Shown here: positions 1,520-56,644 of the stretch, in pieces
Layout of the letters: every line of letters starts with the position of its first letter
Position numbering within the stretch: the first letter of the stretch is position 1
NCBI RefSeq assembly: GCF_037042905.1
Contig: NC_087245.1
Location: 7,752,001 to 7,816,000 of the forward strand
DNA length: 64,000 nucleotides
Reading direction: 5' to 3'
From: Lytechinus pictus
Lineage: Eukaryota
Made by a program: the position numbers and the translations under genes
The notes under the pieces: generated by a model
Told to the model about the DNA's origin: nothing
Database searches by the model: none
What the model saw: the letters and a program-made list of their open reading frames with translations, nothing else

Positions 1520-2272
1520 GGCTTGTATTCAGGTCAATGTTAAAGTTTTATATGTGCAAGACTTTCTTATGGCACATAACTCTGCAACCGTTAGTCACTT
1601 TTCAACCAAGCTTGGAAGGTAGATGTACCTAGGATACCTGCATATTATGCTCCAGTCGGAGGTCACATGGTAAGGTCAAAGGTCATTTTCAGGTGAACGT
1701 TAATAGTTTGTGCAAGACTCTCTTATGACACATAACTCCACAACCGTAAGTCACTTTCCAACCAAACTTGGAAGGTACAGTAGATGTACATGTACAGGGG
1801 ACCTGCATGTTATGCTCCAGTCAGAGGTCACATGGTAAGGTCAGAGGTCATTTTCAAGTCAACATAAAAGTTTACGTGCAAGATTATTACACATACAGTA
1901 ACTCCGCAACCGTAATTAATTTTTCACCCAAACTTGAGTTGTAGATGTACTTAGGAGACCTGCATATCATGGCGCAGTCAGAGGTCCCATGGTATACAGG
2001 TCAAAGGTCATTTTGAGGTCATTGTTATGACATAACGCTGCAACCATAAGTCACTTTTGAACCAAACTTAGGTTGTACAGTATGTAGCTGTACTTGGGAG
2101 ACCTGCATGTTATTGTGTTAATAGGTCACATGGTAATTAAGGTCAAAGGTCATTTTGAGGTCAATATTAAAGTTTACATGCAAGACTCTTCTAGCTATTC
2201 CATCTCAGTTATTTTACAATGAACTGTTGATACACTTTCATAAGTGGGCGAGACACAACATCGCTTATGCCT
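1520..2272 (+). mobile_element. Helentron-associated (HINE/DINE-1-like) element family H2, 5'-truncated, about 4.5 units of ~150 bp
   Basis: Tandem unit ...GGTCACATGGTAAGGTCAAAGGTCATTTTCAGGTCAACGTTAAAGTTT...; 3' end CATAAGTGGGCGAGACAC..GCCTTG as in copy 57941-58599. Confidence 0.75.
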
Positions 2273-2981
2273 TGCGCTACAAATCATTTTTCAGTAATAC
2301 ATTTTTAGCCTGATACTACAGTGTAGATAGATAAGAAGTAACAAATTAAAAACTTTATTTTTTTATACAATGCTGTTTCAACAAACAGTATTGTATGAAA
2401 ATTTCAACACAGTTTTTTTTATGTGAACAGGCCTTCATCTTCAGAACTATTCAGAAAATTCCTCCCTTTGACATAACTTTAAACCATAGAGCTCTATGAT
2501 TAAACAAAACTATAATTATTCATGCGAGATAGCATAGCTACCAAGCAAGATTTGCTACATGTTTTTAGAGGGAAATGACTAGGCCTTTTATGAAACTGTT
2601 TGGACATTTCAATGGAAGTTTTGTGATATTAATATTATCCTCTAAAAAATTATCACTTTGCATTCCTGTCTACAATGGAGGGTAACAAAAGAGGGAGAAA
2701 TTTATATGTTTCAGTATTGTATTTACATTTAGATTCACAGTGTTGATATTTAATGATCCTAACACAAAATTTTCTCTACTTTTTTGCAAAATTTAAAGAT
2801 GAGATTAAATCTAGCCTTTTTTTATTCATTAATTTTTTTTGTTTTGTTTAGATAATTCCTTTGGGATTTTACATGTACCATGGTGAGTTTATTATGGTGG
2901 GGCAGGGAGGGGAGGATGGTGTGGGGAAGGAGGGGACATGATTATTTTTTGTGTGTGGGATGTGTGGGTGTGTTTTTGTTG

Positions 2982-3690
2982 TTGTCTCGCTTGCATACAT
3001 GTACATGTAGCAGAGGGATACTACATGTATAGGCGCCCCTTTTCCAATGGCATTGGCGTCGTCAACATCAAATCTTAACCTAAGCAGGTCAAGTTTTTGA
3101 AATGACATAACTTTTAAAGTATATGGACCTAGTTTATGAAACCTGGAAATTGGGTCAATCAAGTTTTCCTGAACATATTGCCTTAGTTTCAGGTCACATG
3201 ACCAAGGTGAAAGGTCATTTAGGGTCGATCAACTTAGACCATGTTGGGGAAATCAACATCGCAATCTTAACCAAGGTTAAGTTTTTGAAATGCCATCATA
3301 ACTTAAAAAGTATATGTATAATGAAGTATTACTGAATATCCTGCCTGAATTTCAGGTCACATGACCAATGTCAAAGGTCATTTAGGGTCACAGAACTTTG
3401 GCCAAGTTGGGGGTATTTGTTGAATTATTATTATTGAACTTTCTTTGAAAGTTTATTGATATAATTATAAAATGTGGACATACATGTAAGGGTAATTAAG
3501 TATCACTGACAAGTCTTAGGTCACATGATCAAGGTCAAATGTCATTAAGGGTCAATGAAAATAGTATTGTATTATTATATGAATGGTGTTTTTTCATTTT
3601 GTGAATTATTATTTTAGTTTTCAAAGTCAGCACTGCTGCTATATTCAAAATCGCGTAATGCAGGCGAGAATACCAGAGGCACTCCAATTG
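2982..3690 (+). mobile_element. HINE-like element family H1, diverged copy
   Basis: 5' GTCTCGCTTGCA and 3' TGCAGGCGAGA subterminal inverted repeat; internal AGGTCACATGACCAAGGTCAAAGGTCATTTAGGGTC-type units. Confidence 0.75.
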
Positions 3691-5928
3691 TTTTTATTTC
3701 TTTATTGTCTCTCTCATATTTCAAAATTTCTTCCAGTGAAAATTTTGGAAAAATGAATGGATCAATTGAATTAATTTAATATGAATTTATATGTTTATGA
3801 CTCATTTTACTGGTACCTTGATCTATCTATGAAGTTATGAAGTTATTATAATATGATGTATTATGTAGAAATTATGGCATTTATGAAGTCAGTTTATGTT
3901 TGTTTGGGTAAGAGTGGTAATAAGCATTTTCCAGGTCTTAAAGGCTTAAGCATTCAAGATATTGTTTCCTCAATATTTGGTAATATTGGAGGGGTTCTCA
4001 AGAAATATTTCAAACAGAATTGTTTGAACAGAAAAGTCAATTTGGTAGGTGATCAAAATGCGTACTAAGCAATTGACTACCACCAAAAGTGATAGCTGAG
4101 ATGTGTATAACATGCTCATATCATCTTGACAGGGTGTGTACTAGTTTACATCACACTAATTCTTCTTTATTGCAATAATTATCATCAAATGTCCTATTAC
4201 GGTACTCTTGTAAAATACAGATATTCACACTTGAGGAATAATTTTTGGTGTTGTTTGTTATGTTATGTTATGTTTTTTGATGAATTTTTTCCCCTTGTAT
4301 TTCAGCGCTTTACTTTGTTAAATTGGTTAAAAATTACATAGGTAGGTAAGGGCACAACTGGTCTTCGGGTAGCCATTTTCCCGGGAGTAACTAGTGTTGG
4401 TATACATGTTGGGTTTGCTGCTGAGTGCACATGGCGTCTAGAAATGGTAATGTTTAGCATGAAACGTGTGACCCCACTGAGAGCAAGCCCATGGCAAGAC
4501 CAATACCTAAAGTGGGTTCTGGAAAACATTGTACATGTAGGGGAATGCTAGCAAACTGATCTTCAAAACAGGTTTTAAAACTGGTTTAAGGGAAACCAGT
4601 TCAAGAAAGTAGGAGATTGAAACGCGATCTGAAAAATCACAAAAAACTTGGGATTCACAGGGTACAGATTTCTTAGCGTATTTTTATGGTCTGAATAGCA
4701 AGTATGATATTCTGGTTTAAGAAGTGGAGTGATAATTTTGCAATCTTCTTATAGAGTTAAAATAAACACCACCAAATTTAGCAAAGATGAAAGTAAAGTG
4801 AGTCAGGTAAGATGCGAATCCTTGAAATACCAGATCCAAAGGATCAACATACAAATTGGAAATTTATCAAGAGCCAAGGACCTTATTGCTACATGTATAC
4901 TGTACATTAGCAACATATCTACTTAAAATGAAATGTATTTTACACATGTTTCTATGTGTGGACTTCATTAATTTTGTGTTTTGAGGATCTTCGATAGTTT
5001 GATTCTTGCTGTGTGTGAGTGGATGATAAGTACAGAAATTTATTGAAAAGAAGAGAAGATTTTTTTTTTAGAAATAAAAGAAGGTTGTGTCTTTACTGTA
5101 CAAGTTCAAATAACTGTTAAAGTACTACATGCCATATGGAAAATCTCAATTTATATATTTGATTTTCATAATTCTACTTCAAGGTTCTACCAATAATCCA
5201 AATCCAGACAGAACTGATTTCCAATTTACTGAAATAATATTCCTTACCATAATGCATAAAGACACCTACATGTACATCTACATGTAGTATGGGTAACTTT
5301 CTTCCCTGATTTTCTTGAAAAATATTTTTTCAGGTACATGTATTAGCAGTTACATGGCACTTCTCCATTGTAACATACATGTATAAAACATCCCCAACAC
5401 CCACAAACACGCACACACATCCACTCATGTACATGAAGGCCTTCAACCTTTTAATAAAGAATGCAATTATGACAGCTTAATTTTTATGTAATTTAATCTA
5501 AACTATTTTCTTACTTTCTTATGCTCTAGATGTATGTTTGTGTTCATGTTCTATACTCATGCTACTGTATTATGTTACCAGCACCACAAAACCCACAAAA
5601 AGTGTGATCTGTATTATTTTTAATTGGAGCAAATTGAGAGTACATGTATTTTGGTCAGAATGTTCAAATTATAAAAAAAATGGATACATGTGTGCCAATC
5701 AAATGTAAAGTGTAGTTTTTGAGTTTTTATATTAGAACTATTTTTGTCTTTTTTAGTTAATTGTAGGTCATATTTTGTTTTCACGAAAACCTGAATATTC
5801 ATCTAAACCCCTATAAATTTGTTCTAACATTGGTACTTGTTCAAACTAATGGACAGAATGTACGTAATTATATGGTTTGTGAACTTTGGGGTCAATCTGA
5901 TAATTCCTTCTATTGAAATTCTATTGAT

Positions 5929-6896
5929 TTTTGTCTCACCTGCATAGCAGAGTGAGACTATAGGCGCCGCTTTTCCGACGGCGACGGCGACGGCGGCGGC
6001 GGCGGCGGCGTCAACACCAAATCTTAACCTGAGGTTAAGTTTTTGAAATGACAGCATAACTTAGAAAGTATATGGACCTAGTTCATGAAACTTGGCCATA
6101 AGGTTAATCAAGTATTACTGAACATCCTGCCTGAGTTTCATGTCACATGACCAAGGTCAAAGGTCATTTAGGGTCAATGAACTTAGACCATGTTGGGGGA
6201 ATCAACATCAAAATCTTAACCTAAGGTTAAGTTTTTGAAATGTCATCATTACTTAGAAAATATATGGACCTAGTTCATGAAACTTATACATAAGGTTAAT
6301 CAAGTATCACTGAACATCCTGCATGAGTTTCACATCACATGACCAAGGTCAAAGGTCATTTAGGGTCAATGAACTTTGGCCGAATTGGGGGTATCTGTTG
6401 AATTACCATCATAACTTTGAACGTTTATGGATCTGATTCATGAAACTTGGACATAATAGTAATCAAGTATTACTGAACATCCTGTGCAAGTTTCAGGTCA
6501 CATGATCAAGGTCAAAGGTCATTTAGGGTCAATGAACTTTGGCCAAATTGGGGTATTTGTTGAATTACAGCCATAAATTTGAAAGTGTGTTGGTCTAGTT
6601 CATAAAACTTGGACATAATAGTAATCAAGTATCACTGAACATCCTGTGCGAGTTTCAGGTCACATGATCAAGGTCAAAGGTCATGTAAGGTCAAAGAACT
6701 TTGGCCGCGTTGGGGGTATTTGTTGAATTGCCATCATATCTCTATAAGAGTATTGGTCTAGTTCATAAAACGTGGAAATAAGAGTAACCAAGTATCACTG
6801 AACATCTTGTGCAAGTTATAGTAGTTTTCAAAATCAGCACTGCTGCTATATTGAATCGCGTGATGCAGGTGAGACGGCCAGAGGCATTCCACTTGT
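5929..6896 (+). mobile_element. HINE-like element family H1, full length
   Basis: T-run; 5' GTCTCACCTGCA with local hairpin (..GTGAGAC); (CGG)n microsatellite; ~160-190 bp tandem units; 3' TGCAGGTGAGAC followed by GGCCAGAGGCATTCCACTTGTT. Layout matches DINE-1/pearl-type elements. Confidence 0.82.
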
Positions 6897-7093
6897 TAAT
6901 TTTCCTTTTGTCTACAAATTTAATGGAAGAGTAGGCCTAAGTGCTCTTCAATAGACTACATGTAGTAATTCCCCCTTTTGTCATTCTCATGAACATTCTC
7001 CTCTTTCTTGAGTGGGTTAGGATAAGGATCAATTATTGTTATATATCATTATAAAGCTTAGAATCAATCTCCTATTTCAGAAGGGCTATTTAA

Positions 7094-7692
7094 AGGACAA
7101 GTCCACCCCAACAAAAAGTTGATTTGAATAAAAAGAGAACAATCCAACAAACATAACACTGAAAATTTAATAAAAATCGGATGTAAAATAAGAAAGTTAT
7201 GACATTTTAAAGTTTTGCTTAATTTCACAAAACAGTTATAACTGTATGTACATCCTGTTGGGTATGCAAATGAGGAGACTGATGACATCATCCACTCACT
7301 ATTTCTTTTGTATTTTATTATATAAAATAGGGATTATCCTATTTTTCTCCTCCTTGTCAAGTGATACAACGATCAATTCCTCCCTGAACATGTGGAATGG
7401 GCATTGTTTAATACTATATGATTCAGTCAAGTTGGTCCTTATTCTCAAATCTATAAAAAATGAAATATTGTATAATTCAAACAATAAAAAACAAAAGAAA
7501 TAGTGAGTGAGGGACATCATCGACTGTCTCATTTGAGTTGTGCATATCACTGTTTTGTGAAAAATAAGCAAAACTTTAAAATGTCATAACTTTCTTATTT
7601 TACATCAGATTTTGATGAAATTTTCAGCATTTTGCTAGTTTGATTTTTGTCTATTTATTCAAATCAACATTTTTGTGGGGTGGACTTGACCT
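7094..7692. mobile_element. Kolobok-like palindromic MITE family A
   Basis: TTAA at 7090-7093 and 7693-7696; ends AGGACAAGTCCACCCCA / TGGGGTGGACTTGACCT; long imperfect inverted arms; further copies at 44663 and 46086. Confidence 0.85.
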
Positions 7693-7696
7693 TTAA

Positions 7697-8281
7697 AGGA
7701 GAATGAAACCCTTGAAACCAGCTGAATCCATATCAAAGAGAAAAATCAAAGAAACATATTGTTGAAAGTTTGAGGAAGATTGAATGAATAGTAAGAAAGT
7801 TATGAGCATTTGAATATTGAGATCACTAATGCCATGTAGTTCCTCCAATTGGCAATGCGACCAAGATCTGTGATGTCACACACGTACAACTCCCTCATTA
7901 CTTTAGTACTTATTTCACTTATATTCTCGCTTTTATAGAGTCTTATCACAAGGTGAGGTGTTCTCTTTATGAGAGGACAAGTACAGAGGTTTCACAACAT
8001 CATATCATTAATGAATCGTTTGTCATATGATTAGAATGAGCAAAAAGAGATGTTTTGGGGTATATTTTCAGTGTCCAAAAGGGGAGAGTTGTTCATCTGT
8101 GACATCATAGAACTTGGTCGCATTGCCAATGGGAGGATCTCCATAGCATTAGTGATCTCGGCATTCAAATGCTCATAACTCTTCTATTGCTAGTCCTATT
8201 TTACTCCAACTTTTGTTGATCTTATTCTTTGATTTTTCTGCTTTCACAAAAGCTAACTTGCTCCAATAGTTTCATTCTCCT
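7697..8281. mobile_element. Kolobok-like palindromic MITE family B
   Basis: TTAA at 7693-7696 and 8282-8285; ends AGGAGAATGAAAC / GTTTCATTCTCCT; internal inverted blocks (TTGGCAATGCGACCAAG / CTTGGTCGCATTGCCAA). Confidence 0.82.
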
Positions 8282-10919
8282 TTAACTAACATTTCATTCC
8301 TGATGACTTTAAGTGAGTTTTGTGGTGCCTGGTCACATATGTATTTTTTCATGTATGGTTGAAATTGAAATAGAAGTTTTGAGGAATAGAATTTGGAGAA
8401 AAGTAAACTCGACTGAATAAAAATGGATAATGAAACAACAAATTTGGTTGGGTTTACCCCCACCTTATTGACAAGATGAAGCTGCTTTGGTTTTCATTGG
8501 TAAACTCTCGACCTGTTAAGAATCAAATTTAAACATTGTATGATTCATTTCTTTCATTCTGAATTTACAAACAGAGTGGTAAGGGACCTAGATATTAACA
8601 ACATGAGAGTCATTAACTCAAGCCCACATCTAGATAATAAAAATCACAATGTCTGCCCTGCTTTTTTTTATTGTAATGAAATTATGAATATTGGGTTCAT
8701 AAAAATGAGGTTTCATGCTGGTAGTTTTATTAGTTGGATGATGATAACTGACAGAAATTGAGAAGTTGTTGAATATTTGTAGAATGAAGTTAGTGCACAT
8801 GATGTACATCTGTAAAGAAAAAAAAATCTTATTTTTTGTGAATTTTATAAATAAGAACTCAGATTTGAATGGAGGATAAAATCAAACTCTGACAATTTAA
8901 AATTGAGTGCAATACAGTACTGGTCATACATCATATTTCTCTTTATCATCCTTTATATATTCTTGTGGACATGGCCACACGTACATGTTTCGTGTCCAGT
9001 TTGGGTAAGATAGCATACAATAAATGAATCAAGGTTGGCTAGTTACACTATGGTTAGTTTGTCCTGGCTGAAATTATTGATAAAGGAAAAAAAGCATAAA
9101 TACAAATCATCCCTTTTTTATGTCATGAAAAGCAGATGAAAATTATAAATTTTCAAAGTATTGCATTATTTGAGTTAAAATGCATTATTTAAGTGAAATA
9201 GTCTTACATATATTAGTTGAAAATATTGTTTTATGAATATCTGCAAAATTCACATTTTCGATGCATTATTTTTGTTGTGAATTTAGTGATTTTGTGCTTT
9301 TTAGCTTACAACTTTAATCATAGCCAATGTGAATGAATGTCCTTGACCCAAACTTCCTGTATGATTTAAATCAGAACACCTTTTCCCCATAGTTTATTTC
9401 ATGCTCTACACTTATTTCTTTTGGCATGTTCAATTGGTTGATCTGAAAGTAAAAAAGAAATGCATTCTGATTTTCCACTTTTTTCTCACCTATACAAGTC
9501 TATTTTGCTTCAATCATATTTTTCCTACAAAATAATGTCAGAAGATTTGATGAAAAGTGCATTTCCCGAAATATCCAAATTAAATTCAACCTAATTTCAT
9601 TAATTTTGCCTTGCTTGACCCCTGACCTTTTGATAGCAGCGATGGATGGGCATGTATGATTAGGTCTACTCTCTCTCTCTTTCTAGGAGACAGCTTCAGT
9701 ATTATGCATAGTTTATTAGAATGTAGTCATGCCTCTGAACTATAGAGCATGGTCCAGAATGAAAATTACTCTGGGAAAGGTCACTGCTGAAATTAGAAGA
9801 AAGGGAAAAGATAGAGGATATTATAAATCTTATTGGAATTACCTTTTTCTACTTGTGCAATGTATACGTTGGCTATTCCAACTACATAGGGGAGGGGGGT
9901 AGGGTTTTCAGTGAATATGATGTATGAAGACTGAGATGTTTCCATTGTCTTGCTTACATGTGCACATGTAGCTTTATAGAATTTCTAGACATTACCAGTA
10001 CTGAATGAAATGATAAAACATCTTCAGTACATGTCTCATATTTATTTGAGATGCTTAGTACATATTTTTAGTTTTACATGAATTGACATGCACATGTAGG
10101 CCTACATGTACATGTACAGTAGTTGAGATAATCCAGATTCATGTATTAAACACCCATTTCACAAGATGACAAATTTCAGTGATCTTTGAGACTGCTGTAA
10201 GACCTTGCCAGTTTTTGGTCTTTCAGAAGTCCTTCAAATGTCTCTCCCTCTGTGGAATGGGGGCCTTACTCTTAGTCAACAACATACAGGTACAATGTAT
10301 GTACATGTTGATTTCTAATAGCAGATGCAAGAAAGCGATATTTGAGTTGTACATTAAATATACATGTACATACATTTGAAAATCCTATGCAGTGTATTAT
10401 CGATTGAAATTGCTAGGGAAACAACGCTTGAGCCTGTATACAGAAACAATGTAAAAGGTTGGTTCTAAGAGTGATAGCAATGATTTTAACCTTTATGTGT
10501 ACATAAACATAAAGAATATCAACTTTTTACTGAAAATGATTAAATCAATCTTATATACATGTACATACAGTATGTAATTTTAACACAGTTTATGAGGGTT
10601 ATCTTTCGCCAGTAGTTTGGCGTATACATGTAGATGGTGGGCATGGCCCACAGTCACCCCTCCCCCCCCCCCCATTTCATGACCAAGAAAAAAAGGAAAG
10701 GAAAAGGGATAAACGGTGATGTTACTTCTTAATATTACCTTTATGCCAAAAATCTGTCACAAAATTAGATTTTCATTTTTGAAAAGGTCAAAATTGTTGC
10801 TCGCTTGCTTGGGACTTTGTTTCAATAAAGTTGAACCTCTTCAAAATGGTTTTCACTAACTTCTCAAAATATCCTCCTGCTGAGCCGAGCTTTTATATTA
10901 ATAACTCAATAACTTTAGT

Positions 10920-11852
10920 CTGTTAAAATTCTTGATGTAATCATCTAATCCAATCTAAAATGGGACCTACAAATCATGGGAATCATCAAAAATTATAACA
11001 GAAAGTTGTTCATGGATGTTTAGACTTTAAAGCGATATTGGCTGTCTCTATCGAACCTGAAATTGGTTTACATGATTGGCTACGTCCTGTTACGGAATAT
11101 TGCACCCCAGTTTTTAATGGTGGGCTTACAATGAAGCATGTACAATAAGTTTAGAATAAATTAAAAAAGCTTGTAGAAACATGTTGGGCCCAAACTACAT
11201 GCACAGTACACAGATTATGCCAGTGCTTGCCTATCATGGGAAATTCCTACTCTTGAATACAGAAGGGAGAAACTCAGCCTGGATTTTGCAATGTCTTTAA
11301 CCAAATATCCAACATTTAGTGCCTGGTTACCTCCAAAAAACTTTACCACCAATCTCCGACATGCTCCTAGATATCAACAATATTACAAATGTAAAACAAA
11401 TAGATTTTGCAATAGCCCCATACCATATTTCATAGATCTCCTGAATAAAGACATGCCCAATTAATAAACCCACTACTCTTTTGAAAGCAATACCATAAAT
11501 ATGCCTACATTGTACTTGCAATAATAAACTTTTTTTAATGAATGAGGAAATCGACACTTTTATTCAATATCCATATATTTTAATGATCTTTTACAACTGG
11601 CTTATTTTCTTTTATTATTCTTAATTTACCACTTCCTCATTATCTTATGTACATTTATATTAATTTCCATTGCCTAAGTATTCTTGCCTTATTAACTATA
11701 GATACACATATTTCTCATGTCAGTTTTTACAAAGGTTACTGCTTTTTAATGTTTGAAATATGGAATGAGTCTTTTAATTGTTTGTACTTTGTATACATGA
11801 CCAATTCAGCAATTTAGCTGCAACTCATGTTTTTAATAAACCTTGAATTGAA
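10920..11852 (+). mobile_element. Degenerate 5'-truncated CR1/L2-type LINE (ORF2 C-terminus plus 3' UTR)
   Basis: Frameshifted translation KILDVII*SNLKWDLQI...RPVTEYCTPVFNGGLT...DYASACLSWEIPTLEYRREKLSLDFA resembles the post-RT region of CR1/L2 ORF2; ends AATAAACCTTGAATTGAATT. Confidence 0.75.
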
Positions 11853-12101
11853 TTTTGTAAAACAATAAGAATCACAGATGCTGTTTTGGGCTAGCATTTT
11901 TTTTTTTGCCATTTACACCATTGCAGTTTAAGTTGTATCAGACAACTTTGCTAATTACATACTATGTATTCATTGCATTATGAAATGATGTTCATCTCAT
12001 GCTTACACTTATTATGCTATTGTATGTATCAAACTTAGACCAAATTTAGCATTACTAACAGTAACATCCAGGATTTGATGTTTTCTTTCTTGTTTCTGCA
12101 G

Positions 12102-12181
12102 TTTGTAACTTTGTGAGCCATGATCGATGCACGGAAGCAGGTATTTCACCATGTGCAACAATAGCAGCAGATAGGATAAAG
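12102..12181 (+). CDS. DGKQ: DGK-theta exon: end of first C1 domain (VCNFVSHDRCTEAGISPCATIAADRIK)
   Basis: Pyrimidine tract and ctgcag acceptor; AAG|gtatga donor; CxxxxHxxC...C spacing of a C1 zinc finger; phase 1 to 0, in frame with the next exon. Confidence 0.9.
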
Positions 12182-15100
12182 GTATGATCATCCCAAAATG
12201 TACAAAATGAAATCATGGTTTTAAGTTTGTAGAAAAATATGGTATTGAAATTGATACACATACTGTACATGTACAGGATGAAAAAAAAAAGGTTTTAAAT
12301 AATTTTAGGGCAGTATTATGGAATGTGTATTGTCAGTATTGAGCCTGGACCCCCTTTTACATCTACTTTCCAAAAGCCATATGACTGTATGAAAGAGGAA
12401 ATGATACAGATGAAAGAAATAAAGGTAACCCATTACACTGTACATTGAAAAGTACATTTCAACTTTTCCTTAGGTGAGGAAGAAGACAACCACCTTATTT
12501 TTATTTTGCTGTGATGCTACATGTAAGTGCATGAGAGAGAGAAAAAATGGATAGTTTATTTGCTTTCAGACTTTGATATCAGAGTCTTGATGTTAAAAGT
12601 ATCTTTCCTAATTTCTTTCACTGTTGCCAAATATTCTACAGAAGGTGTTGTAATGAACTGACTATAATGACAAAAGCTTACACATACCTTTAGATTAAGC
12701 CTTTTCAAACCTTTTCACTGGAGAAGTGTAATGATGGCAGAAAGAAATTTGTGAGTGCAGAGAGGGAGAAATCATTTGTAGGATGTTGGTTCAGGTTTCA
12801 CCTCATGAACAGAAAGTAATGGAATCAAAGCTCAGGTTGAGTTATTTGTATCATAATTCAAAAAGGCTTATTTGCTTTCTTGTATAAGATGCTGAGCATT
12901 TTTTTGGACTTATAGGGGGCAATGAATACACATTGTACATGTTTGTTTGCTAGACCTGTGATAAATCTCTGAAAATTGCATGTTAATATTCAAATTCATT
13001 ACCAGATTATAAGATGTGAAATAAAAATGTGATTGGACAAGAAGGATCCCCCTCCCCCCAAAAAGACCAGCAAAAGATCATCACTCACTGACAGGACAAC
13101 ATTGATCCACATCTTTCCTGGAAATCTGTTTAGCCTTTTATAGTGCAAAGATGCATGTGGGGAAAGAGTGAGAAAGAGAGAGACAGTGGGAAAAATTGGT
13201 ACATGTATGTGTTTTTGATGTTAATGATGATAATACATGTCCATCGTCTGAATGTATTCTGTATTATTAGCAGATCAGTGATGTATTTTTAAAAGAAAAT
13301 AGGCTTATGTGTATTTTGGTTGGGATCCTTGCAACTTCTCCACAGTAAAAAAAAAAACACAATAAAAAATGATTTTTTTATAGTAAAAAAAAAAAATTCT
13401 CAATCATGGAATGGATTGAAATTTGAAGGATGCACATTAGTTTGGAGCTTTCTGATAAGCAACCACTAAATTTGTAAGGTGCTTTAAAGTGTTCAAACAC
13501 GTACATGTATTATCACTCTGTAGATGAACCAAAAGGTAAGTTTAAATGCAATTTATTACAAAAAAAGACTGGAATACAAAATGAATAGATCACAGTTCAA
13601 TGTGTGTTCAAATTGATATTGGCCTTTTGTAGCTTATTTGCCAAGCATACTAATTATGGCTGCAATTTATGTCTGCATTAATACACACACCAAATCTACC
13701 CTGAAGCTCTCTCACAGCTCAACTCAACTCAGCTCAGACTGGCTGGCTGGCAGGTTTGTTCTTACAGGTAGCCTAAATAGACTTTACATATGGTTTATTA
13801 AACTGTCATCGCAAAGCCAGATACCAGACGATGCCAAAGCTTACAGTGCCGGCTATTAGTGATAACAATTACAAAGACCCACTTCTATCCTCTCTCTTTC
13901 ATCGCTACTCTACCACAATGAAGCACCGCCTCATGTGGTCTAGCTTGACGACAGACCAAGTGATCACACACGGCAGCTATAAAAAGACTCGAGCAGCGAG
14001 GTCTAAAAATAGACCTGATATTTATGGAAGGGAGATATTTGTAGCTGCCCAGTAAAAGGAGATGCTCGGGAGATTTGACTAGTGGTGGCTGAGCGATGGC
14101 AGCACTACGGCGGCATAGGCAGCAATATGACACTGTGCAAACCCAGCCACCTCACACACACACACACACACACACCCTCTTACTCCCACACACCCACTGT
14201 AACCCTAACACACTCATTTTCCTTTTTGCTTGCACATTTTGTTCATGAAACATAGGCGTCTTTTAGTGGTTGTATTTCTTACATTCAAATTATGGGTTAT
14301 ATTTTTATTCTGCTATTTGCCTTTATTTTGTTTTATGGTTTTATGCCATTGGTTATTTTACCTACTTGGATTATCACATTTTTTATTGAAGCTGCATGGA
14401 ACATCATGAATTTCATTATTTATGATATTCGACAGTTGTACATGCATTCTGCACTAATGTGATTGATATCTAAGTCACGATTATGTTAACTTTTCAAAAT
14501 GAAAAGGAAGGAGGATTACATTTTGAAGATTTAAAATAGAATAAGATTATTTTCTGCTATGATTACAATTTTGGAAAAAAATATTTTCAGCAGTTTAGTT
14601 TGTTCATGGACTTACAGTCCGTAGTTTGTTTCAATAGAAGATCAATAGTAGATATTAAACTATAGTGTGATGTTGAAAATTTTGTTCTGTTTTTATCTTT
14701 AAACCTCAAATTTGTCAATTTCTCTGCTCCAAATAAGGAGAAAAATGGGACTAAGTCTCCTTATGATATGTGTGAAATCATATTTGGTATATAAATTCCA
14801 TCTGGTACTGCTCACTGATAAAATAAACAATAATATAGATAGTAGATACTAAGACTAAAGGAAATATTATGATACAGCAAGTATGTCACCTAGTTGCTTA
14901 TAATATGAATCATGTTCAAATTCCTTCCCCTTTTATCTTCTCCATTTCGATCCTTTTATTTTAAGCTCTCTCCATTTTATTTTTTGCCATATTCCATCTC
15001 TACCTTCATGGTACACGTAGCTTACATGTTTGTCTTAATGAAGAACAAATTTATATTTTCATATACAGATATCTTATGAAGTAGCTTTAAAAGATGCTTT

Positions 15101-15694
15101 TCACTATTAAGGCAAGATATGTTTAATCATCATTATATATAGTACTTTATCTTACACTCATCTGTCTGTTGGCAACCTTGGGTATTGCAATATTTTAGTT
15201 GGTTATGCAGTCCTATATCTATGGAGTCCTATATCTATGGAGTAATTCATCTGCTTGAACAACACATAGAATTAGGCGATACACTACATGTCATGGATTT
15301 GGAAGATTTTCTATTCTGTTTTATATACTTGTATCAAAGGTGTAATTCACAAGATTGATGTCAAAGAGTTTGGTCTGAATTGCTTTTTGGTGTGGTTATA
15401 AATTGTCATCTGTTTTGAGTCAGAAAAACATGGTTTTCTTTCCTTTATTCAAACTTCATTGGGTTCTTATCCCACTGCTGCCACCAATATTAACTCATGC
15501 AATTCAAAATGGTGCATCTTCGTGGTCTTATGATTATCTTTGACATTTAAAGCAACATAATTAGAATATAACTACTTTAAAAATTTTATATTGTTTCTTG
15601 GTAATGTAAAAGACATTTCAGATTTATAATTCCTAGTTCTACATGCAATATCCTTAAACCTGGAAAATGGAGCAGAAAACCTACATAAAATGTT

Positions 15695-15955
15695 TAAAAA
15701 CATGAAACATAAAGCATGAAATATGAAAGCCTAAAACATAAAGCATAAAGTATAAAACATGAAGCACAAAACTTAAAACAGATATGTAAAATAAAAGATA
15801 TAAATAGATGACAAAATATAAAACATGTAAACTAAGCATAACATACATGTATTACACAACACATAACTCTTAACATGATACACATAAACCTTAAAACATG
15901 TTACAACATTAGGAAAACAAAAATGTAAAACATGAAAAATAGAACATAAAATGAA
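15695..15955. repeat. Degenerate (AAAACAT)n-like low-complexity repeat
   Basis: Recurring ~7-nt units AAACATG/AAACATA/AAGCATA. Confidence 0.7.
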
Positions 15956-18900
15956 TGTATTACATTTCCAAAAAAAAAACCCAAATAAAATGTAGTCACT
16001 TCACACTGACAAAATATTTTCAATTCAGGTAAGGTAGCGATCTCTTATTTCCAATGATATATACTCGCCTTATTTACAATGAGTTTTGACTTTGCAATCA
16101 TCCAAGTACATGTAATGATGAAAACAATATGACATTTCATATTGCCTGTTTTATCTCGATACTATTTTTTCATTTAGCCTAAAAGTGACACATTCTGTTT
16201 TCATTTGATTTTGATGAATACTTGTACATGTATTATCATCTGGTATTATTCTTGTACATGTATTATCATCTAGTATCAGAAATAATATCTTCTTTGATTT
16301 CCTCTCTATTTTAGTCATCTTAATTAGGGGAAAACAATCATGCACTCACTGGTTTGTTGGTAGGTCTGTCCCACCTTATTACATTCAACATCTTGATGTA
16401 CACACTACATGTATATCTTTATATCATTTTTTTTCTCCTTGTGATGAGGCGCAAGCGACCCACACAAAAATCAATGCACGCTGTACGTTATGTAAATAGA
16501 TGCGGGCAACCCTTGGTGTCTTGTTGGAAGGTTGCATTATTTAGCAAATGCCAAGGAGTAGTGGTCACACAGAGTACACACACTCCCTTCTCACAGACAC
16601 CCCCACACACACATTAAAATACATGCATTGTAGTAAGCATGCATACACAAACATACACACACACACCCCTGATATGTGTACATGCAGAGGGTATCGGGAG
16701 ATAAAGATGGAGAGATGGAGAGAGGAGAAGAAAAAGGGCTCACATACACTGGAGACTGGATGTAGGTACAGCTAACACACAATCATATATACATCATGCT
16801 GGATCCATGCCATGGAGCTACATACATACATACCCACAATGCTCTAAGACCTCTGTCTCTCTCTCTCCATCCCTTTTCTTCTGATGCCTGCCTGTATATT
16901 GCTCAAATAGACATGCTAAGTAGCTAAGCACATATCTGCAATGTAGAGCGCACTCAATGATACAGGTAGCAAAAGGAATAATGAAAAGGAAGGATAGAGA
17001 ATAAGAAGCTCTAAAAAACACTGGGGAAGATTGTTATAAAAATGGGAACATCTACATATATCTAGAGACAAGGCCACAAATGAAGTGTTCATAGTGACAA
17101 AGACTTAAAAGAAAACCGAAATTAAGTGTTCCTGGGTGTGATCAATACAATGAGAGGAGAGAGGTGATGGGGTACTTTTGGAAATAAATTCAGAGCTATT
17201 GTAATTTTCTATTTCATCTTTATAATGCTTAGGATAAAAAAAAATAAGTCCTGCATATTTTGAAATACATATGGCCAAGGATGTACATCATACAAATTAC
17301 AAGGCATTTGAATTATAATAATAAACTAGCAACACCCTGTAAAGAACCCCAACATGGTAATGGAATATTTGTTTAGAATTGTTCTGAAGTGTACCCTTGA
17401 TTGCTGCTGGACATGTTTTGATTCCTCTGCAACATTCATATCTACCCAAGATATCTAAATGTATGGCTAAAGACTTCTTATTAGAAACATTCATTGTTGT
17501 CATAATAATACAGGTTGTCCTTTTATACATGTTATTAAATGTATGAGGCCAAAAAATCAAAGGGACATTGAAAATGGGTTTCAAACAGACAGGTGGTCTA
17601 TAAACCTGTACAGCGCTTCCCAGAAAAAAATGAAACCAAAAATTTATTATTTTTACAAATATGATAGACAGATGATCTGTCATTGTAAAGCAGAGGGTCT
17701 CCTCTTACATCTGATATACATGTTGAGATTTGAGAGTAAAAATCCTGTATTCTGAAGAAAGTGTGCAAAAAATCATTTTGCCGATGGTATCTGACCTTAA
17801 AAAGGAAAATAACATGTCTAAAAAATGTTCCATTCTCATATTGTTTGGTTTGTTCCATTTATTTCACTTTAACAAAAGGCACATAATCAGACTGGCGCAA
17901 AATATTGAGTGCTGATTGGCTAATGATAAATTAAGTCTTAAATCAGAATAGAGCAAGTGTTTGCACAAACTCCTATTTGATTTTAATAAAATGATATTTA
18001 CAAGGTAGACCATATTACATCTGTGTTAAGTTCTGTGTACCTGTAAGAAAAGAAAGGCCTTTATGGCTTAATTGGTACAAGTTCCCTCAGTTCATTATCT
18101 TTGTTATGATATCTCAATCAAACTCAAAGAAAATAAAGGAATAACAAAATTCAATTTCTGTTCGTTTTTGTTTCTTTTAAATGACACTTGATTTTCATTA
18201 ATTTTATTAAATGAAGGCATTTTTACAGGTTAGCTGACTGACTGAAAGCAGTACTCTAGACTGAAAATAATATGATTTGAAAAGATAAAGTAAAATGAAA
18301 CAAACAAGACACTGAAAATATCATCAATATCAGATTTATTTGATTGGGGTATCACATTAAAGAGCAGATATTTAATTTCTTTAACAATTCAATTACTGTC
18401 TGTGACTTTTTTTGTTTCCTTTCTTCCAATTGTTGTTACTCCTGTGTGAATGAAGAATAAGTTATACCAGATAAAAATGAGACTCTCAGCTTTATAATGA
18501 ATATAGTTGTGATTAAGTTACAATAAATCATTTATATTCTTCTTTTCATTTTTGTGGGAACCACTGTATATATTGTAGTTCAAAGATAGTTCGTCAATGT
18601 TATTAAAGTGAATCTAGCGATAATGGCAGACCTGCTTCAAATCAAGAACATTCAATGTAAGAATTCATTTACTATATGGCACATCATCTGGCTTTGAATT
18701 ATTTTTCCTTTTTTCACTTAAATATTCCCTATCAAGTTGAAAGCAAAAACAAATTGTTTAACAGAATTCAGAGTTTTTTAAAGACCTCTTTTTTTACCAT
18801 TGTAACAAGTAACAACTCATGTAGATTTTGAGAACAGGTTTCTATATAGAGCATGTTTGTGTCATATCGTAAAGGTGAACTGCCTGTAACTTGCAATCTG

Positions 18901-21900
18901 TGCCCCAAATCATTTTTGATATTCAGATGTCAGTGAACTTTTCTTTTGAATTTCAGTTATGAAATATTTGCCATTTTATGAATAATGTAACTAATTATGT
19001 GTACTTGAATGCAAGTCATTATATTTGCATATACAGTATATATTCCTCAGTTTTGCTGGTAAATACTAGGGTGGCAAATACTAGTATAACCTGTAAATAC
19101 TGGTATAATACCCCCCCCCCCAAAAAAAAAAATGGACAAAACAAAATACTGGGAAATACTCTGCAACTATCATGAAGTAAATAAAAATAACACATTATAG
19201 AATAAATGGCAAGATAAAACATCTGAAGCCCCTTCCAAAATTGGTCTTGTTCCTGTTCGCAACCATATTATGGTCACAATATATTCTGCTGGAAAATACA
19301 AACATTGGTATTAAAGTTAACTTTACCCTTTAAAAATATTAATTTTACCCAAATTCATTCAGTTATTTTGATTAAAATGACCCCATTATTTTTGTTCAGT
19401 GGTATAATGATTAGGATTAATTGCCTGTTAAAATAAAAATGCCACTTGAACAAACCTTTCCTGGTTTTTTTTGGGTATAATGTCTGGGAAATTATGGGTG
19501 TCAGTTATTTGGGTCATAAAAAACAATGTAATATTAATGATGATAAATGAAGATATTGTAGGGTTAATTACTGAACTGGGCTCTTGCATTATAGTTATGA
19601 ATGGTACAGTACTGTACATGTTGGATGACTGGGCATTACATGTAGTAGTACCTCAGTCACATTTCCCCTACGGCGGCCGTATGTCAAGTGGAAAACATAC
19701 ATTTTTTTGTACCAGCTACATGAATGTCCATGTACATATAGATGTCTTGAATGAAAATTAATGAAACAGCTATTTTTGACACCGTATGGCTGCCCCATAT
19801 GACATGTGACTGAGGTATTAGGCATCAGATATTTTACTGGCTTACATGTATCCCACCGCTGCCACCAAATTACCACACTTAGGATTGTTTATGTTATGAT
19901 TATGGTAAAAATGTTCCATGAACTCTTGTGCAGGTGTCTCATCACCACTAATTATCTGAATGCATTTTTATGAAGTGTTTTTATTTTTTATTGGTGCAGG
20001 AATAATCAAATATTGTGCTAAGTGATAGATACGTCCTGGTTCTAATCTAGGAGTATCTTCTTGCAAGGTCTGAACAATGGGCCATACATGTATGTATGTA
20101 CATGTAGGGCCATCTTACATAAAACCAACATCATAATATAAGAAATAAGAGAATGTGAAGGAGTATTTGTACATGTCTGTGCAAAGATTACGGAAGTGTT
20201 AAAGACATGATATTATCCTCATCTCATTTACTTCATTATGGAAATTTGTGTCACAATTAATTGCCAAAGCAACCTACGTCACCTAATGCGAAAAGCATTA
20301 CTTTGGAATTCTTGTCATTTGAATTCCCCTCTGCGAGTACAGTCTATAGATGCACTGTACTGCAATTAACCATTTGTACATATCATTAACAATGATTGCT
20401 GAATTACAGGCATGAGAACCCACCTCGCGTTCTAGGATGCATACATGTGTGTACACATTGCATGCCTAGCACATTCAAGCGATTTGTTGAAGCCTTTGAA
20501 TCTACATGTAGTACTTGCAAGCAAAAGAGATGATTTGATAATTACATATATATACAGTGTAAGGCCTGGCCAACATTGCAGCATGCCATTCCTATCAGTA
20601 CAATCAATATTACACAGGAATCCCATTTTCAATAAAGCCTGAAACATCAAAGAAATAATGGCAAATCTCATAAATTTTCCCCTTCAAGCAGTTCTTAGGA
20701 ATTCTTGTCATTTGAATTCCTTACTTTAAACGAGGTGAAAGTAAACCAGACCTGTGAGTGTTCAGACTACATGTTACATGGATACAACATGGACATATTT
20801 AAATTGTCTAGTTCTGTAGGTGATTAACATTTTGAAAAAAACCCAATGACACATCTTCAACTGTGTTTCTTGATCCATGCTAAATAATATGAAATATTAT
20901 TTTATTTCTATCTTTATTTTATTTTATTTATTTATTTATTTTTATTTTTTTGTTGGGGGGCTGTCATGTTTTATGTTGATAAATATGAAGGAGACTTTTT
21001 AATGTAGATAGATGTTCCAAAGGCTCTATGTATCAGATGACACCTTAAGGTGAATTTTTGTTCATGCATGACTATACATGTATGTACAGTACATACTATA
21101 GTGACCTTTTTTTCTCCAGGGTTTACAAAATCTGCTTTCGCCAAAATGAAAAAAATATCATTCAAGCAGTACATGTACTGTAGCTCTCATTTCATTGAGT
21201 AAGCCTATCAGCCTACATTAGATGCATGAAAAGCTTTGATGTATCAGTTGATTCCATTTGATAATTTTTATTCTTTTTTATGCATGGTTATGAATAGGTA
21301 TTGTGTAAATGTAATCACTTTATTTGTTTTGAGAACTTGGCCAGACATTTGACTTGACCTACACAAAAGCGATTCAGTCAAGAAGAAGGTTTCTGAATTG
21401 ATGACTTTTTCATGTGAATTATTGCCCGATAAGAAATATCTTCTTTCAAAATTGATGTTTTCTCATTCGTGGACATACACACACCTGAAACTGATCCTGA
21501 TTAATAATGCTGGTATTGTAATTTAGTCAAATTTCGATCATTTGATTTATGTGTGCTTACATTTGTGTAATTTGTGTAATGTTAATGATAATATTACGTA
21601 AAATTTTTAAACCCATTAGGCCTAAATGTATATATACAAAAGTTGCAAGAAAAGAAGAATATAGATTAAAGATCCAAGTAGGAATGGTGCAAAGAAGTCA
21701 TGTGTACATAGTAAACAACATGAACAAATATGCAATGTGCGGTAAACAACAAATATGAATGGCAAAAACATCAATACTGCAACTACTTAAAAGTACGATA
21801 TAGAAATAATTTGAATCATACAGCTCGAATACAATAGATTGATGTGTGAAACATTTTAATCAATATTGATACTTTATAGTGGTTTGCACACACGTCCTGT

Positions 21901-26035: not shown

Positions 26036-26377
26036 TTTGTCTCGCTTGCATAGTAGAATGAGACTATATGCGCTGCTTTTCCAATGGCGGTGGCATTGAA
26101 ATCTTAACCAAGAACTCTTTTTTAAAATGCCTTTTTAATCTGAAAAGTTAATGGATCTAGTGTATGAACTTGGCTTTTAGTGTAATCAAGTAAAGTCTTG
26201 CATAAGCCTTAGGTCACATGATCAAGGTCATAGGTCATTTATGGTTGATGAACTTAGTATTTCATTATCATATGAATGTTTTTTTTTTTGTAATTCATCT
26301 TGGTTATTTTCAAAGTCAGCACTGCTGTTATATTCAACCGTGTAATGCAGGCGAGACTGACAGAGGTTTTCCACTTG
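26036..26377 (+). mobile_element. HINE-like element family H1, short diverged copy
   Basis: GTCTCGCTTGCA ... TGCAGGCGAGAC..AGAGG..TTCCACTTG ends; single internal unit. Confidence 0.72.
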
Positions 26378-44662: not shown

Positions 44663-45215
44663 AGGACAAGTCCACCCCAACAAAAAGTTGATTGTAATAA
44701 AAACAGAAAAATCAAACAAGCATAACATTGAAAATTTCATCAAAATCGGCTGTAAAATATTATGACATTTTAAAGTTTCGCTTTATTTCACAAAACAGTT
44801 ATATGCACATCCTGGTCGGTATGCAGATGAGGAGACTGATGACGTCATCCACTCACTATTTTTTTGTATTTTATTATATGAAATATGAAATATCCTAATA
44901 TTCTCCTTATTGTCAAGTGAAACAACGATTAATTCCTCCCTGAACATGTGGAATTAGCATTGTTTAATGCTATATGGTTCAGTCAACTTGGTCCTTATTT
45001 TCAAATCTGTAAAAAATGAAATATTGTATAATTCAAACTATAATAAACAAAAGAAATACATGTAGTGAGTGATGGACATCATCGACTGACTCATTCGCAT
45101 GACACTGAGTTGTGCATATCACTGCTCTGTGAAAAATAAGTGAAACTTTAAAATGTTGTAACTTTCTTATTTTGCATCCGATTTTGATGAAATTTTTCTG
45201 GGATGGACTTGACCT
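44663..45215. mobile_element. Kolobok-like MITE family A with a small deletion in the right arm
   Basis: TTAA flanks; AGGACAAGTCCACCCC ... GGACTTGACCT; colinear with 7094-7692. Confidence 0.85.
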
Positions 45216-55226: not shown

Positions 55227-55327
55227 ATGGTCATTTAGTTCGATTGTTTGATGGACCAGCCTCTCTAGAGAAAGGTTCATATCATCTCATCTGTGTTGCC
55301 AAGGATACCACCATGAAACAGCTGACA
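55227..55327 (+). CDS. DGKQ: DGK-theta exon, first RA/ubiquitin-like region (DGHLVRLFDGPASLEKGSYHLICVAKDTTMKQLT)
   Basis: tttcag acceptor; ACA|gtaaga donor; (V/I)xxFDG motif typical of DGK-theta; phase 1 to 0. Confidence 0.88.
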
Positions 55328-56303
55328 GTAAGATCATTACACTATTCAATGTGTTGGCAACCCCAAAATTCTGAGAACAACGAATTCATCTGGGACTTTG
55401 CAGTACTTGTCTGTCAAAAATGATGATTTTGGCTGTTGTTATCATTATGAACTGGGTTTGTTGCAGAAAGAGCTCTTATTGACTCTTTGCATGCTGAATT
55501 AAATTTGTGGGGATAATAATGACAATTGTTTCCATGTTATTTTCTTTAAATCAAGATTTCCATATCGCACAATTGATACTTGTGATCATTATATAGATGT
55601 TATCCAAGAATTGCCTTTTATTAGCTTCTCTAATTTGAAGTTAGGGGAGAAAAGTAATTGTTACGATTGTTCATTTCAATTGTACAAATGTGCAAAATTG
55701 CAACATCAGCGCGAAAAGAGTTAAAGGCAACTAAAAAAATCAAGCAAAACAATTTTTTTTCCCCACTCAGATGCAGCCATTTTGACTTGCATTTGATTGC
55801 TAGTACCTTCTAAGGCTATTGTATCACATGGTAATCACATGATAAAGTTGCTGTTTGGATGGACTTTCTTTAGAAGAAAGAAGAAGCCATTTTTGGTCAT
55901 GATGATAATCACTTGTATTCTTGTGCAGAAGCCATGTGAGGAGGAGGCTATAATTATTAGATTGTTAAGCATACCACAAAGTATTAACCTAATCATGTTT
56001 AGATTTTTACTACTTATGCACTAGATAACTAATCATACCTTCTTTCAACATCTTTATTCAATTTGATTATCTAAATTTCTCTTCCAGAGAGCAGATATTA
56101 CTGTCATATATACAAAATTCAAAATGAGTGAATCCTAAAACCTTGATGCCTTGAAAGAAATAGAGAGTTATTGATTATCTAATTGACTGATCTATTAAAA
56201 TGATATGTACTCTTGAACAATTGTTTATGTTGTAGTCTTGTCTGTGTTGCCCTTATCGTATTCAATGAAAACAACAATGATTATTTTCATTTTTTTTATT
56301 CAG

Positions 56304-56385
56304 GAAACGGCAATGAGGTCATTTTACATTGCTGACAATGCTGCTCTATACTACCTCACAGAAGTAGCAGAATCAGGTCAAAACG
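56304..56385 (+). CDS. DGKQ: DGK-theta exon (ETAMRSFYIADNAALYYLTEVAESGQN)
   Basis: T-tract and cag acceptor; AACG|gtaaat donor; resembles the AALRAFHI...YxL segment of DGK-theta; phase 0 to 1. Confidence 0.88.
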
Positions 56386-56644
56386 GTAAATACATGTACA
56401 TGTAACACTCAAACTCTATCCACCGTCTGTGTACCTCCTACCCCCCCTCCTTCCCTCCGAATTTTTCACCATTCTTCAGTAATGTTTTGAAAATGTGTAC
56501 CATGTGTTAAGAAAAAATGATAAGTACATGTACCCTATTGGATTCTGAATATCATGTGATACTACTATAGTTGGATTAATATAGCACTTTTTGCCATAGG
56601 ATACCAAACACAACTGTTAGTACCATTGATTTATCAGCAGTGCT

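Follow-up and report, generated by a model that had tools for sequence, protein, structure and literature searches.

A Six-Base Palindromic Insertion at TA Sites of the Lytechinus pictus Genome, Probably Left by the Excision of Tc1-Type Transposons

The octamer TACATGTA, which recurs in a 64,000-base stretch of Lytechinus pictus DNA (the window), reflects a genuine insertion of six bases at TA. Such words are probably footprints that Tc1-type cut-and-paste transposons left on excision. An element of this type would insert at TA and duplicate it, and on its exit the transposase would cut two bases inside each 5′ end; joining of both flanks by the host without loss would then give TA + CA + TG + TA, a net gain of 6 bases. 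Rarer repair would give TA-CAG-TA or TA-CTG-TA (+5), TA-CAG-TG-TA (+7), or TA-CA-TA (+4), and reuse of the scar's own TAs would build short stacks. An earlier note on this DNA had read the words as Tc1/mariner footprints. The insertion at TA, the reuse of sites, the +5 class, and a family with fitting ends bear this out in part; no donor family could be connected to the scars, and no site was observed with empty, occupied, and scarred alleles.

Results and Discussion

Abundance of the Palindrome

The palindrome had been described as recurring dozens of times, and a count against shuffled sequence had been proposed. The window holds 65 copies of TACATGTA versus 1.90 ± 1.28 expected from dinucleotide-preserving shuffles, and 0 of 100 shuffles reached 65. 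TACAGTA, counted on both strands and thereby including TACTGTA, was likewise enriched (26 copies versus 9.55 ± 2.99; 0 of 100 shuffles reached 26). The Markov expectations for TACATGTA, which is the commonest 8-mer of the window when simple repeats are set aside, are 2.4 (order 0), 6.9 (order 3), and 29 (order 5). Genome-wide (812 Mb), 224,046 copies were counted, compared with ∼29,500 predicted by composition; the reversed word has 85,448. Within the dense patch (Table 1), 54 exact copies are accompanied by 77 one-mismatch variants versus 44.8 expected, an excess that indicates that many scars are old.

Table 1. Features of the Window Related to the TA-Site Insertions
Feature	Position	Strand	Remark
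Dense TACATGTA patch	1..31530	.	55/65 window copies (∼1.75 per kb), 21/26 TACAGTA/TACTGTA
+5 scar TACAGTA	1776..1782	.	compared with sister units of 160-bp tandem repeat
Second +5 scar, same 160-bp tandem repeat	1894-1900		compared with sister units
Two stacked units, TACATGTACATGTA	2996..3009	.	plain TA in paralogous repeat copy at 5945
Further single TACATGTA unit	3022-3029		near the 2996..3009 stack
Mixed stack TAGGCCTA-CATGTA-CATGTA-CAGTA	10097..10121	.	TA sites common to neighboring units
Coding exon 2, diacylglycerol kinase theta-like gene	12092..12181	+	no TACATGTA
Three stacked TACATGTA units	23934..23953	.	449 positions of this 20-mer in genome
TTAA-flanked, nearly palindromic 610-bp MITE copy (molecular ruler)	24651..25260	+	4,555 first-look candidates in genome
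Private +12 insertion (two units) at MITE-consensus TA	24676..24689	.	absent from 29 other aligned copies
Private +6 insertion at TA, other MITE arm	25214..25221	.	MITE copy alignment
Coding exon 3, same gene	26786-26878		no TACATGTA
Coding exon 4, same gene	28175-28264		no TACATGTA
Coding exon 5, same gene	29914-30045		no TACATGTA
Coding exon 6, same gene	43161-43319		no TACATGTA
Single TACATGTA unit	45057..45064	.	plain TA in paralogous copy at 7501
Coding exon 7, same gene	49911-51014		no TACATGTA
Two stacked TACATGTA units	56391..56404	.	few bases into intron, adjoining inferred donor site of exon ending near 56387

Insertion at Plain TA Sites

The scars sit at TA and leave it duplicated, as is evident from paralogue pairs, from an alignment of 30 repeat copies, and from genome-wide spectra of MITE arms. 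Upon realignment, all the pairs of repeat copies quoted in the earlier note gave the difference claimed for them (+6, +12, or +5), the pair at 3481 only approximately. The alignment of MITE copies that it had suggested was made with 30 genomic copies of the 610-bp element and revealed eight private insertions, four of them of the CATGTA type. Each of these is confined to one copy, which identifies them as derived insertions and not deletions.

In the genome-wide comparison, which sampled insertions without bias, 1,704 arms were unmodified over a first stretch of the MITE arm, and 53 of 57 further matches were real insertion variants. The 18 insertions of at least 5 bp include nine CATGTA, one TACTGTA, one TACAGTGTA, and two complex insertions with CATG. 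A second stretch yielded 43 matches; its 15 insertions of at least 4 bp include four canonical arrays (two of them doubles), one TACAGTA, one TACACTGTA, and one TACATA. Minor classes of +5 (CAGTA/CTGTA), +7, and +4 are thus found alongside +6 at MITE arms. Some events were inherited and are not independent, since three of the six MITE copies with one common scar cluster in the tree (92/93 support). For this reason, the site-preference count from the two MITE subfamilies is only suggestive. As a test between CAG and CAC ends, the 3+2 scars TACAGTGTA and TACACTGTA were rejected because both parsings yield the same duplex. Sequencing runs X15–X17 showed 0 other letters versus the window over kilobases and so supplied no second haplotype; run X1 covers repeats only, none of the runs contains half of the words, and CATGTA is absent among the 12 indels listed of 19.

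An origin from a repeat consensus, which the earlier note had named as a refutation, is ruled out for the MITE, where the word is absent from the consensus. More broadly, the word could be part of repeat consensuses or be kept by selection as an Irx binding site. TACATGTA is indeed described as the sequence that Irx homeodomain factors prefer to bind and as an abundant Phytophthora promoter motif (PMC3520976), and a nearby cluster of TAGATCTA and TAGGCCTA words does sit in a repeated element. This origin is nevertheless highly improbable: the flanks of the 65 window sites are unrelated to one another, the events are private insertions in copies of a MITE whose consensus is free of the word, and selection fails to explain why the word should be created through a single exact 6-bp insertion at TA.

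Stacks of Units

The palindrome is often chained, as had been claimed, with seven overlapping 14-mers among the 65 window sites and stacks of up to three units (Table 1). Reuse of the same site is evident from stacks whose units have a TA in common, mixed stacks included, and the +5 class co-occurs with TACATGTA in the patch. Across the genome, arrays of 1, 2, 3, 4, and 5 units number 205,789, 8,485, 390, 28, and 1, respectively, with successive ratios of 0.041, 0.046, 0.072, and 0.036. This fall-off is geometric, and the long-tailed, length-dependent arrays of a microsatellite were not seen in the 812 Mb, where a single five-unit array occurs. Replication slippage of a TACATG hexamer, the process that the earlier note had named as able to refute it, would account for the existence of tandem stacks (9,353 double positions genome-wide). 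The geometric sizes indicate that slippage is not the cause. Moreover, 205,789 of the 214,693 arrays are single units, created where a plain TA had stood between flanks unrelated from site to site, and mixed stacks with GGCCTA or CAGTA are impossible by slippage, so that an ordinary microsatellite is extremely improbable.

Location within the Diacylglycerol Kinase Theta Gene

The insertions had been said to fill the introns. This is true of the diacylglycerol kinase theta gene's introns 1 and 2, which hold 51 of the 65 TACATGTA copies at 1.6–2.1 per kb. It is not true of the remaining introns, in which the density is near the genome mean of 0.28 per kb (0.23 in intron 5); 55 of the 65 copies lie before 31.6 kb. 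The patch begins just downstream of coding exon 1, itself located 0.8–1.0 kb before the window. Elsewhere in the genome, TACATGTA patches span 10–60 kb and have sharp edges; densities beyond the 171 kb examined were taken from pattern counts. The accumulation in introns 1 and 2 may reflect where elements landed or left in germ-line chromatin. Target choice by Tc1/mariner elements is not known to produce a six-fold patch, a point against the footprint reading.

The 25 coding exons (4,329 bases) were mapped with tblastn. In agreement with the claim that called exons are free of the palindrome, no overlap with a coding exon was found for any of the 65 window sites or of the 94 sites in 171 kb, a weak point because only ∼1–4 overlaps would be expected at intron density.

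Target Context and Resident Transposons

The scars are biased in their sequence context. TTAA accounts for 2.6% of scars versus 10.3% of TA sites, a four-fold depletion, and S-TA-S for 23.3% versus 12.6%. The half-sites ACA-TA and ATG-TA make up 39 of 234, a further target bias. The share of A-TA-T (13.7%) is close to its background share of 13.0%.

The search for a young Tc1 family with CA..TG ends that the earlier note had proposed was successful. The genome encodes an active DDE transposase that targets TA: a DDE_3 search gave 729 candidates; the 150 that were scored mostly contain uninterrupted 364-aa frames. At least 150 scored copies correspond to an intact Tc1 with TA-CA...TG-TA ends. 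The family is 1,896 bp long, ends in TA-CACTAC...GTAGTG-TA, carries the Pfam domains HTH_Tnp_Tc3_2 and DDE_3, and has copies with near-identical scores. Pogo-type DDE_1 gave 76 matches. The mariner Transposase_1 profile found no match, and the control for the same search was also without any match.

That this young, CACTAC-ended family, now filling the genome, wrote the scars is suggested by its TA duplication and CA...TG ends, which suit the +6 scar, and by its hundreds of intact copies, one of which lies 21 kb downstream of the window end. Several observations make this very unlikely. The family, the only one whose context was compared with that of the scars, inserts at A-TA-T in 27 of 31 half-sites and seven of eight full copies, and the preference is missing from the scars. 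The third base of its ends is C, which misfits the +5 CAG/CTG scars; CAC ends cannot anneal to TAC(A/T)GTA, and the family is therefore not the source of that class. Finally, many scars are old, whereas the copies score almost identically. The context and the CAC ends together indicate that the donors were probably older families, and most scars would have been written by successive, mostly older families ending in CAG...CTG.

Searches of the genome recovered no CAG-ended TA family, tblastn with 120 Tc1-type proteins detected no relic within the patch, and a generic search for TA-flanked inverted repeats returned only nested matches in two known families. The failure to tie a donor family to the scars, the lack of a relic in the patch, and the A-TA-T mismatch count against the footprint reading. 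A donor search of the window produced five inverted-repeat candidates with TA/CA ends. Two of them (17609-18568 and 22342-23707) proved not to be repeats that end in this way, and a third (26997-27246) lies within a 275-bp element. The true ends of this element are flanked by C(A/T)G and not by TA, so its GG...CC ends do not explain TAGGCCTA.

Excision Footprints and Similar Words in Other Systems

Transposons are the likely donors of the scars. Minos leaves six-base footprints in Drosophila that consist of the TA plus four terminal bases and are the product of a four-base stagger and heteroduplex repair. The +6 scar has the same composition here, but the Minos route would require CATG-ended elements, and none was found.

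Tc1/mariner enzymes are described as cutting 2–3 nt inside the 5′ ends (PMC2170065), and footprints formed by NHEJ correspond to the overhangs (PMC7827188). Tc1 and Tc3 of Caenorhabditis elegans share with the process proposed here the TA target, the CA...TG ends, a staggered cut of two bases, and the TA-CA-TG-TA scar (PMC3520976, PMC2170065). However, taCATGta is called a rare footprint of Tc1 in the worm (PMC3520976, with reference to Eide and Anderson 1988); in the urchin it predominates, with 224,046 copies, a difference that counts against the reading. The TAC(A/T)GTA footprint of Sleeping Beauty and mariner, formed from annealed three-base CAG overhangs (PMC7827188), corresponds to the minor +5 class, 26 in the window; the majority scar retains two bases from each end.

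In Trichoplax adhaerens, the major microsatellite (ACAGT)n resembles the present word in being TA anchored and scar-like, in its great excess, and in lying near gene starts. Unlike here, it forms true tandem arrays of a 5-bp unit; its authors consider it a possible binding site and describe the transposons as few and inactive (PMC2871265). Motif-1 of Phytophthora promoters is the same palindrome, TACATGTA, found upstream of 12,070 genes. It is interpreted as a transcription-factor site, and its authors explicitly put aside the footprint idea (PMC3520976). Apart from that dismissal, no paper linking the abundance of TACATGTA to footprints appeared among the texts and excerpts returned by the literature search.

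If the words are footprints, one precise 6-bp insertion would make up roughly half of all those of at least 5 bp at the scored sites, and ∼1.3 million bases of the genome would be scar tissue, a mutation class absent from standard indel models. The strongly patchy scar density would serve as a fossil map of the germ-line sites at which DNA transposons arrived and from which they departed, comparable with germ-line chromatin data. That Irx factors are published as preferring this sequence makes it directly testable whether excision scars contribute to regulatory evolution.

A Second Palindrome

A second word, TAGGCCTA, has 66,473 genomic copies, about eight-fold over composition, and stacks with itself and with TACATGTA 5–7 times more often than generic TA does. 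Nine of nine copies in the examined loci have unique flanks; the word is absent among ∼96 insertion variants in MITE arms. Stacking like that of TACATGTA without a known donor counts against the footprint reading. It is one of several observations that suit a host or domesticated enzyme, or else abortive attacks by a transposase, writing TA-palindrome-TA words (CATG, perhaps GGCC) at chosen chromatin patches with no resident element at each site; the others are the donor family not found in the searches, the very uniform scar, the sharply bounded patches, and the scar-like repeat in Trichoplax with its few, seemingly inactive transposons (PMC2871265). Such an origin is quite unlikely. The inserted letters are exactly the leavings of Tc1 ends, the minor +5, +7, and +4 classes match the variants to be expected from repair, the genome carries hundreds of active Tc1 copies, and the proposal is without a candidate enzyme.

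Perhaps, although this is doubtful, the scars are no randomly scattered by-product, and a germ-line process aims cut-and-paste at chromatin patches of 10–60 kb, in this case introns 1 and 2 of an expressed gene, writes TA-palindrome-TA (CATG, perhaps GGCC), and seeds Irx-type sites. Chromatin-guided transposons or a co-opted transposase may underlie such targeting, which would place hundreds of thousands of ready-made Irx-type homeodomain sites in regulatory introns.

As a third scar type, TAGATCTA was considered and rejected, because a young repeated element contains 12 of the 14 copies found in 171 kb.

Excess and insertion polarity of TACATGTA

The eight-letter TA-CATG-TA word TACATGTA occurs 65 times in the window compared with 1.90 ± 1.28 in dinucleotide-preserving shuffles, none of which (0 of 100) reached 65, and, simple repeats aside, it is the top 8-mer of the window. 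TACAGTA, counted on both strands, is also overrepresented (26 versus 9.55 ± 2.99 expected), and the comparison with shuffled sequence proposed in the earlier note came out in favor of enrichment. The flanks of the 65 sites are mutually unrelated. In the 812 Mb sea urchin assembly, where the window spans G000:C1:7752001-7816000, 224,046 copies of TACATGTA are present (0.276 per kb), against ∼29,500 predicted by composition and 85,448 for the reversed word.

The words were claimed to be insertions at a former TA. Indeed, upon re-alignment every quoted pair of repeat copies gave a clean gain of 6, 12, or 5 bases, the pair at 3481 only approximately. A 610 bp MITE family, TTAA-flanked and nearly palindromic (4,555 first-look candidates in the genome), served as a ruler. 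The suggested alignment of MITE copies, made here with 30 of them, covered 17,508 aligned positions and contained 1,791 substitutions along with 8 private insertions. Of these insertions, four are CATGTA placed at a TA of the consensus, five units in total, three of them carried by the single window copy. Confinement of each CATGTA insertion to one MITE copy indicates that the word is a derived insertion, hereafter a scar.

The insertion spectrum was obtained by genome-wide pattern searches for all length variants of two stretches of the MITE arms, both short and containing TA. For the first stretch, 1,704 arms were unmodified and 57 matches had extra letters, 4 of them spurious. Half of the 18 insertions of at least 5 bp were canonical CATGTA (9, one with a neighboring 1-base loss); the remainder comprised TACTGTA (1), TACAGTGTA (1), complex CATG-containing insertions (2), and local duplications or others (5). 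The second stretch gave 43 matches, with 15 insertions of at least 4 bp: four canonical arrays (two of them doubles), one each of TACAGTA, TACACTGTA, and TACATA, and 8 others. Among six MITE copies with one identical scar, three form a tree group (support 92/93) and possibly represent one inherited event. In one MITE arm, TAGAG-CATG-TAGAG stands in place of the TAGAG of other arms; this scar-like insertion duplicates five bases rather than two. Taken as an excess of the word and its origin by insertion, the observation is solid; the type of lesion is already known, and its scale in L. pictus is unusual.

Stacking and target context

Slippage of adjacent sequence had been named as a rival source of the insertions. 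Genome-wide, however, TACATGTA arrays number 205,789 single, 8,485 double, 390 triple, 28 quadruple, and 1 quintuple, with ratios between successive sizes of 0.041, 0.046, 0.072, and 0.036; stacked-unit positions number 9,353 with two units, 449 with three, 30 with four, and one with five. This geometric drop without a long tail indicates that slippage is not the engine. CATGTA follows a scar-edge TA 12.5 times more commonly than a generic TA, a figure in which regional clustering and target preference are confounded.

The choice of target is biased. TTAA accounts for 2.6% of scars versus 10.3% of all TA sites, and TA with C or G on both sides for 23.3% versus 12.6%, while ATAT is at background (13.7% versus 13.0%). 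In a 344 kb sample, 39 of 234 half-sites are ACA|TA or ATG|TA, and for several scars in repeats such a half-site was already present in the ancestral sequence. These half-sites resemble the published Tc1 target consensus.

Distribution along the diacylglycerol kinase theta gene

Mapping of a sea-urchin diacylglycerol kinase theta protein against 171 kb (the window plus flanking DNA) placed 25 coding exons on the + strand. The introns were described in the earlier note as full of insertions, which holds for introns 1 and 2 but not for the sparse introns 5 and 6 (odds ratio 5.8 for scars per TA site, P ∼1e-6). Together with only 18 TACATGTA sites in the 60 kb upstream, the intron counts indicate that the scar-dense patch starts at the 5′ end of the gene and ends ∼31 kb in. 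CpG depletion showed no correspondence with the patch. Double scars are grouped in 10–60 kb clusters along the whole contig, so patchiness is general; chromatin-guided landing, local hopping, or better local tolerance of insertions may be the cause. One double scar lies a few bases into an intron, directly after an inferred GTAAAT donor site, which indicates that this site tolerated 12 additional bases next to a splice signal. An extremely strand-skewed T/C-rich simple repeat, built from CTTT and TTCC units, also lies in intron 5.

Positions of features and scar counts by intron (window coordinates unless a contig or locus is named; negative values and values above 64,000 lie outside the window)
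Feature	Position	Length	TACATGTA	Per kb	+5 scars
Diacylglycerol kinase theta gene	-985 to 71,563
Intron 1		12.9 kb	21	1.63	10
Intron 2		14.6 kb	30	2.05	11
Intron 5		13.1 kb	3	0.23	0
Intron 6		6.6 kb	3	0.46	3
T/C-rich simple repeat	37900-39500	∼1.5 kb
Double scar at donor site	56386-56404
MITE, window copy	24651-25260	610 bp
MITE arm with five duplicated bases	G000:C1:21730953-21730985
Tc1 element, copy 1	L033:450-2346	1,896 bp
Tc1 element, copy 2	L051:3908-5803 (∼84.9-86.8 kb)	1,896 bp
Coding remnant within copy 2 (intact Tc1 copy)	85,442-86,575
Tc1 copies, recurrent spacing (example)	G000:C6:20053360-20055436
CTAG-rich stretch	L053:8950-9650; ∼-15 to -5 kb (L052, L053)
TAGGCCTA	259, 363, 6932, 10097, 21617, 35087
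Inverted-repeat element	26986-27259	275 bp

Candidate donor elements

Tc1/mariner elements are described as cutting two to three bases inside their 5′ ends (PMC2170065), and end joining after Sleeping Beauty excision as leaving a footprint equal to the overhangs (PMC7827188). A two-base stagger at CA...TG ends would yield the six-base scar. A young Tc1 family with such ends, proposed as something to look for, is present: a genome search for DDE_3 gave 729 candidates, and all 150 scored were above cut-off, nearly all with near-identical scores and most with an uninterrupted 364-aa frame, suggesting that the family is very young. The element is bounded by TA|CACTAC...GTAGTG|TA and encodes 342 aa from the ATG with HTH_Tnp_Tc3_2 and DDE_3 domains; its named relatives are Tcb1/Tcb2-type transposases (∼40%–59% identity). 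Consistent with the absence of an intact Tc1 from the window, the sole Tc1-like coding remnant in the 171 kb is an intact copy outside it. A search for pogo-type DDE_1 gave 76 matches, and one for mariner Transposase_1 gave none, its control also matching nowhere.

The CACTAC-ended family is nevertheless not the main writer of the scars. It prefers A-TA-T (27 of 31 half-sites and 7 of 8 full copies), a context in which scars are found at background share, and its CAC ends are unable to give TAC(A/T)GTA. In addition, many scars are old, judging from the surplus of one-mismatch variants in the patch (77 versus 44.8 expected, beside 54 exact copies). Of the proposal in the earlier note, insertion at TA, the co-occurring five-base class, and the presence of a young CA...TG-ended Tc1 are supported. 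Naturally read, the scars would have accumulated from one Tc1-type family after another, each with CAG...CTG ends, but no such family was found among the elements recovered here. Tc1-type excision as the class of mechanism is well supported, if indirectly.

In C. elegans, taCATGta is given as a rare Tc1 footprint (PMC3520976, citing Eide and Anderson 1988). The same source gives TACATGTA as the preferred Irx homeodomain site and, in Phytophthora, as an abundant promoter motif upstream of 12,070 genes, for which its authors set the footprint idea aside. Analogous to the scars of L. pictus, (ACAGT)n is described near gene starts in Trichoplax (PMC2871265). No attribution of a genome-wide TACATGTA excess to footprints was found in a search of mostly open-access literature.

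Tc1 copies often lie head to head, with recurring spacings of 1645, 1678, ∼1273, 1037, and ∼804 bp. Fourteen runs, labelled as marine metagenomes or as other organisms (six or more), contained 0.15–0.17 of the words of a 10 kb stretch of which the Tc1 element makes up 0.19, which hints at near-identical copies elsewhere, through horizontal spread or shared ancestry.

Other TA-palindrome-TA words

Among TA-NNNN-TA words in the 171 kb, palindromes show the strongest excesses: inner CATG (94 observed, 7.9 expected), GGCC (23, 1.1), GATC (14, 2.2), CCGG (6, 0.9), and CTAG (9, 1.9). One young repeated element upstream of the window accounts for the GATC excess and for 9 of the 23 GGCC words. A stretch rich in CTAG and packed with TAGATCTA, TAGGCCTA, and similar words belongs to a young repeated element for which there are 229 candidates as well as ∼10 copies that are 100% identical. 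Genome-wide, TAGGCCTA occurs 66,473 times versus ∼8,400 from composition (∼8-fold), stacked with itself as TAGGCCTAGGCCTA 478 times and with TACATGTA as TAGGCCTACATGTA 2,421 times, 5–7 times the generic rate. It was absent from ∼96 insertion variants of the MITE arms, and the one abundant GG...CC-ended element was rejected as its source because that element is not TA-flanked.

This GG...CC-ended element, a 275 bp inverted repeat with a copy in the window (3,670 first-look candidates, 86%–90% identity), ends in GGGCCCC...GGGGCCC. The C(A/T)G on both of its flanks may be a 3 bp target duplication or may belong to the repeat itself.
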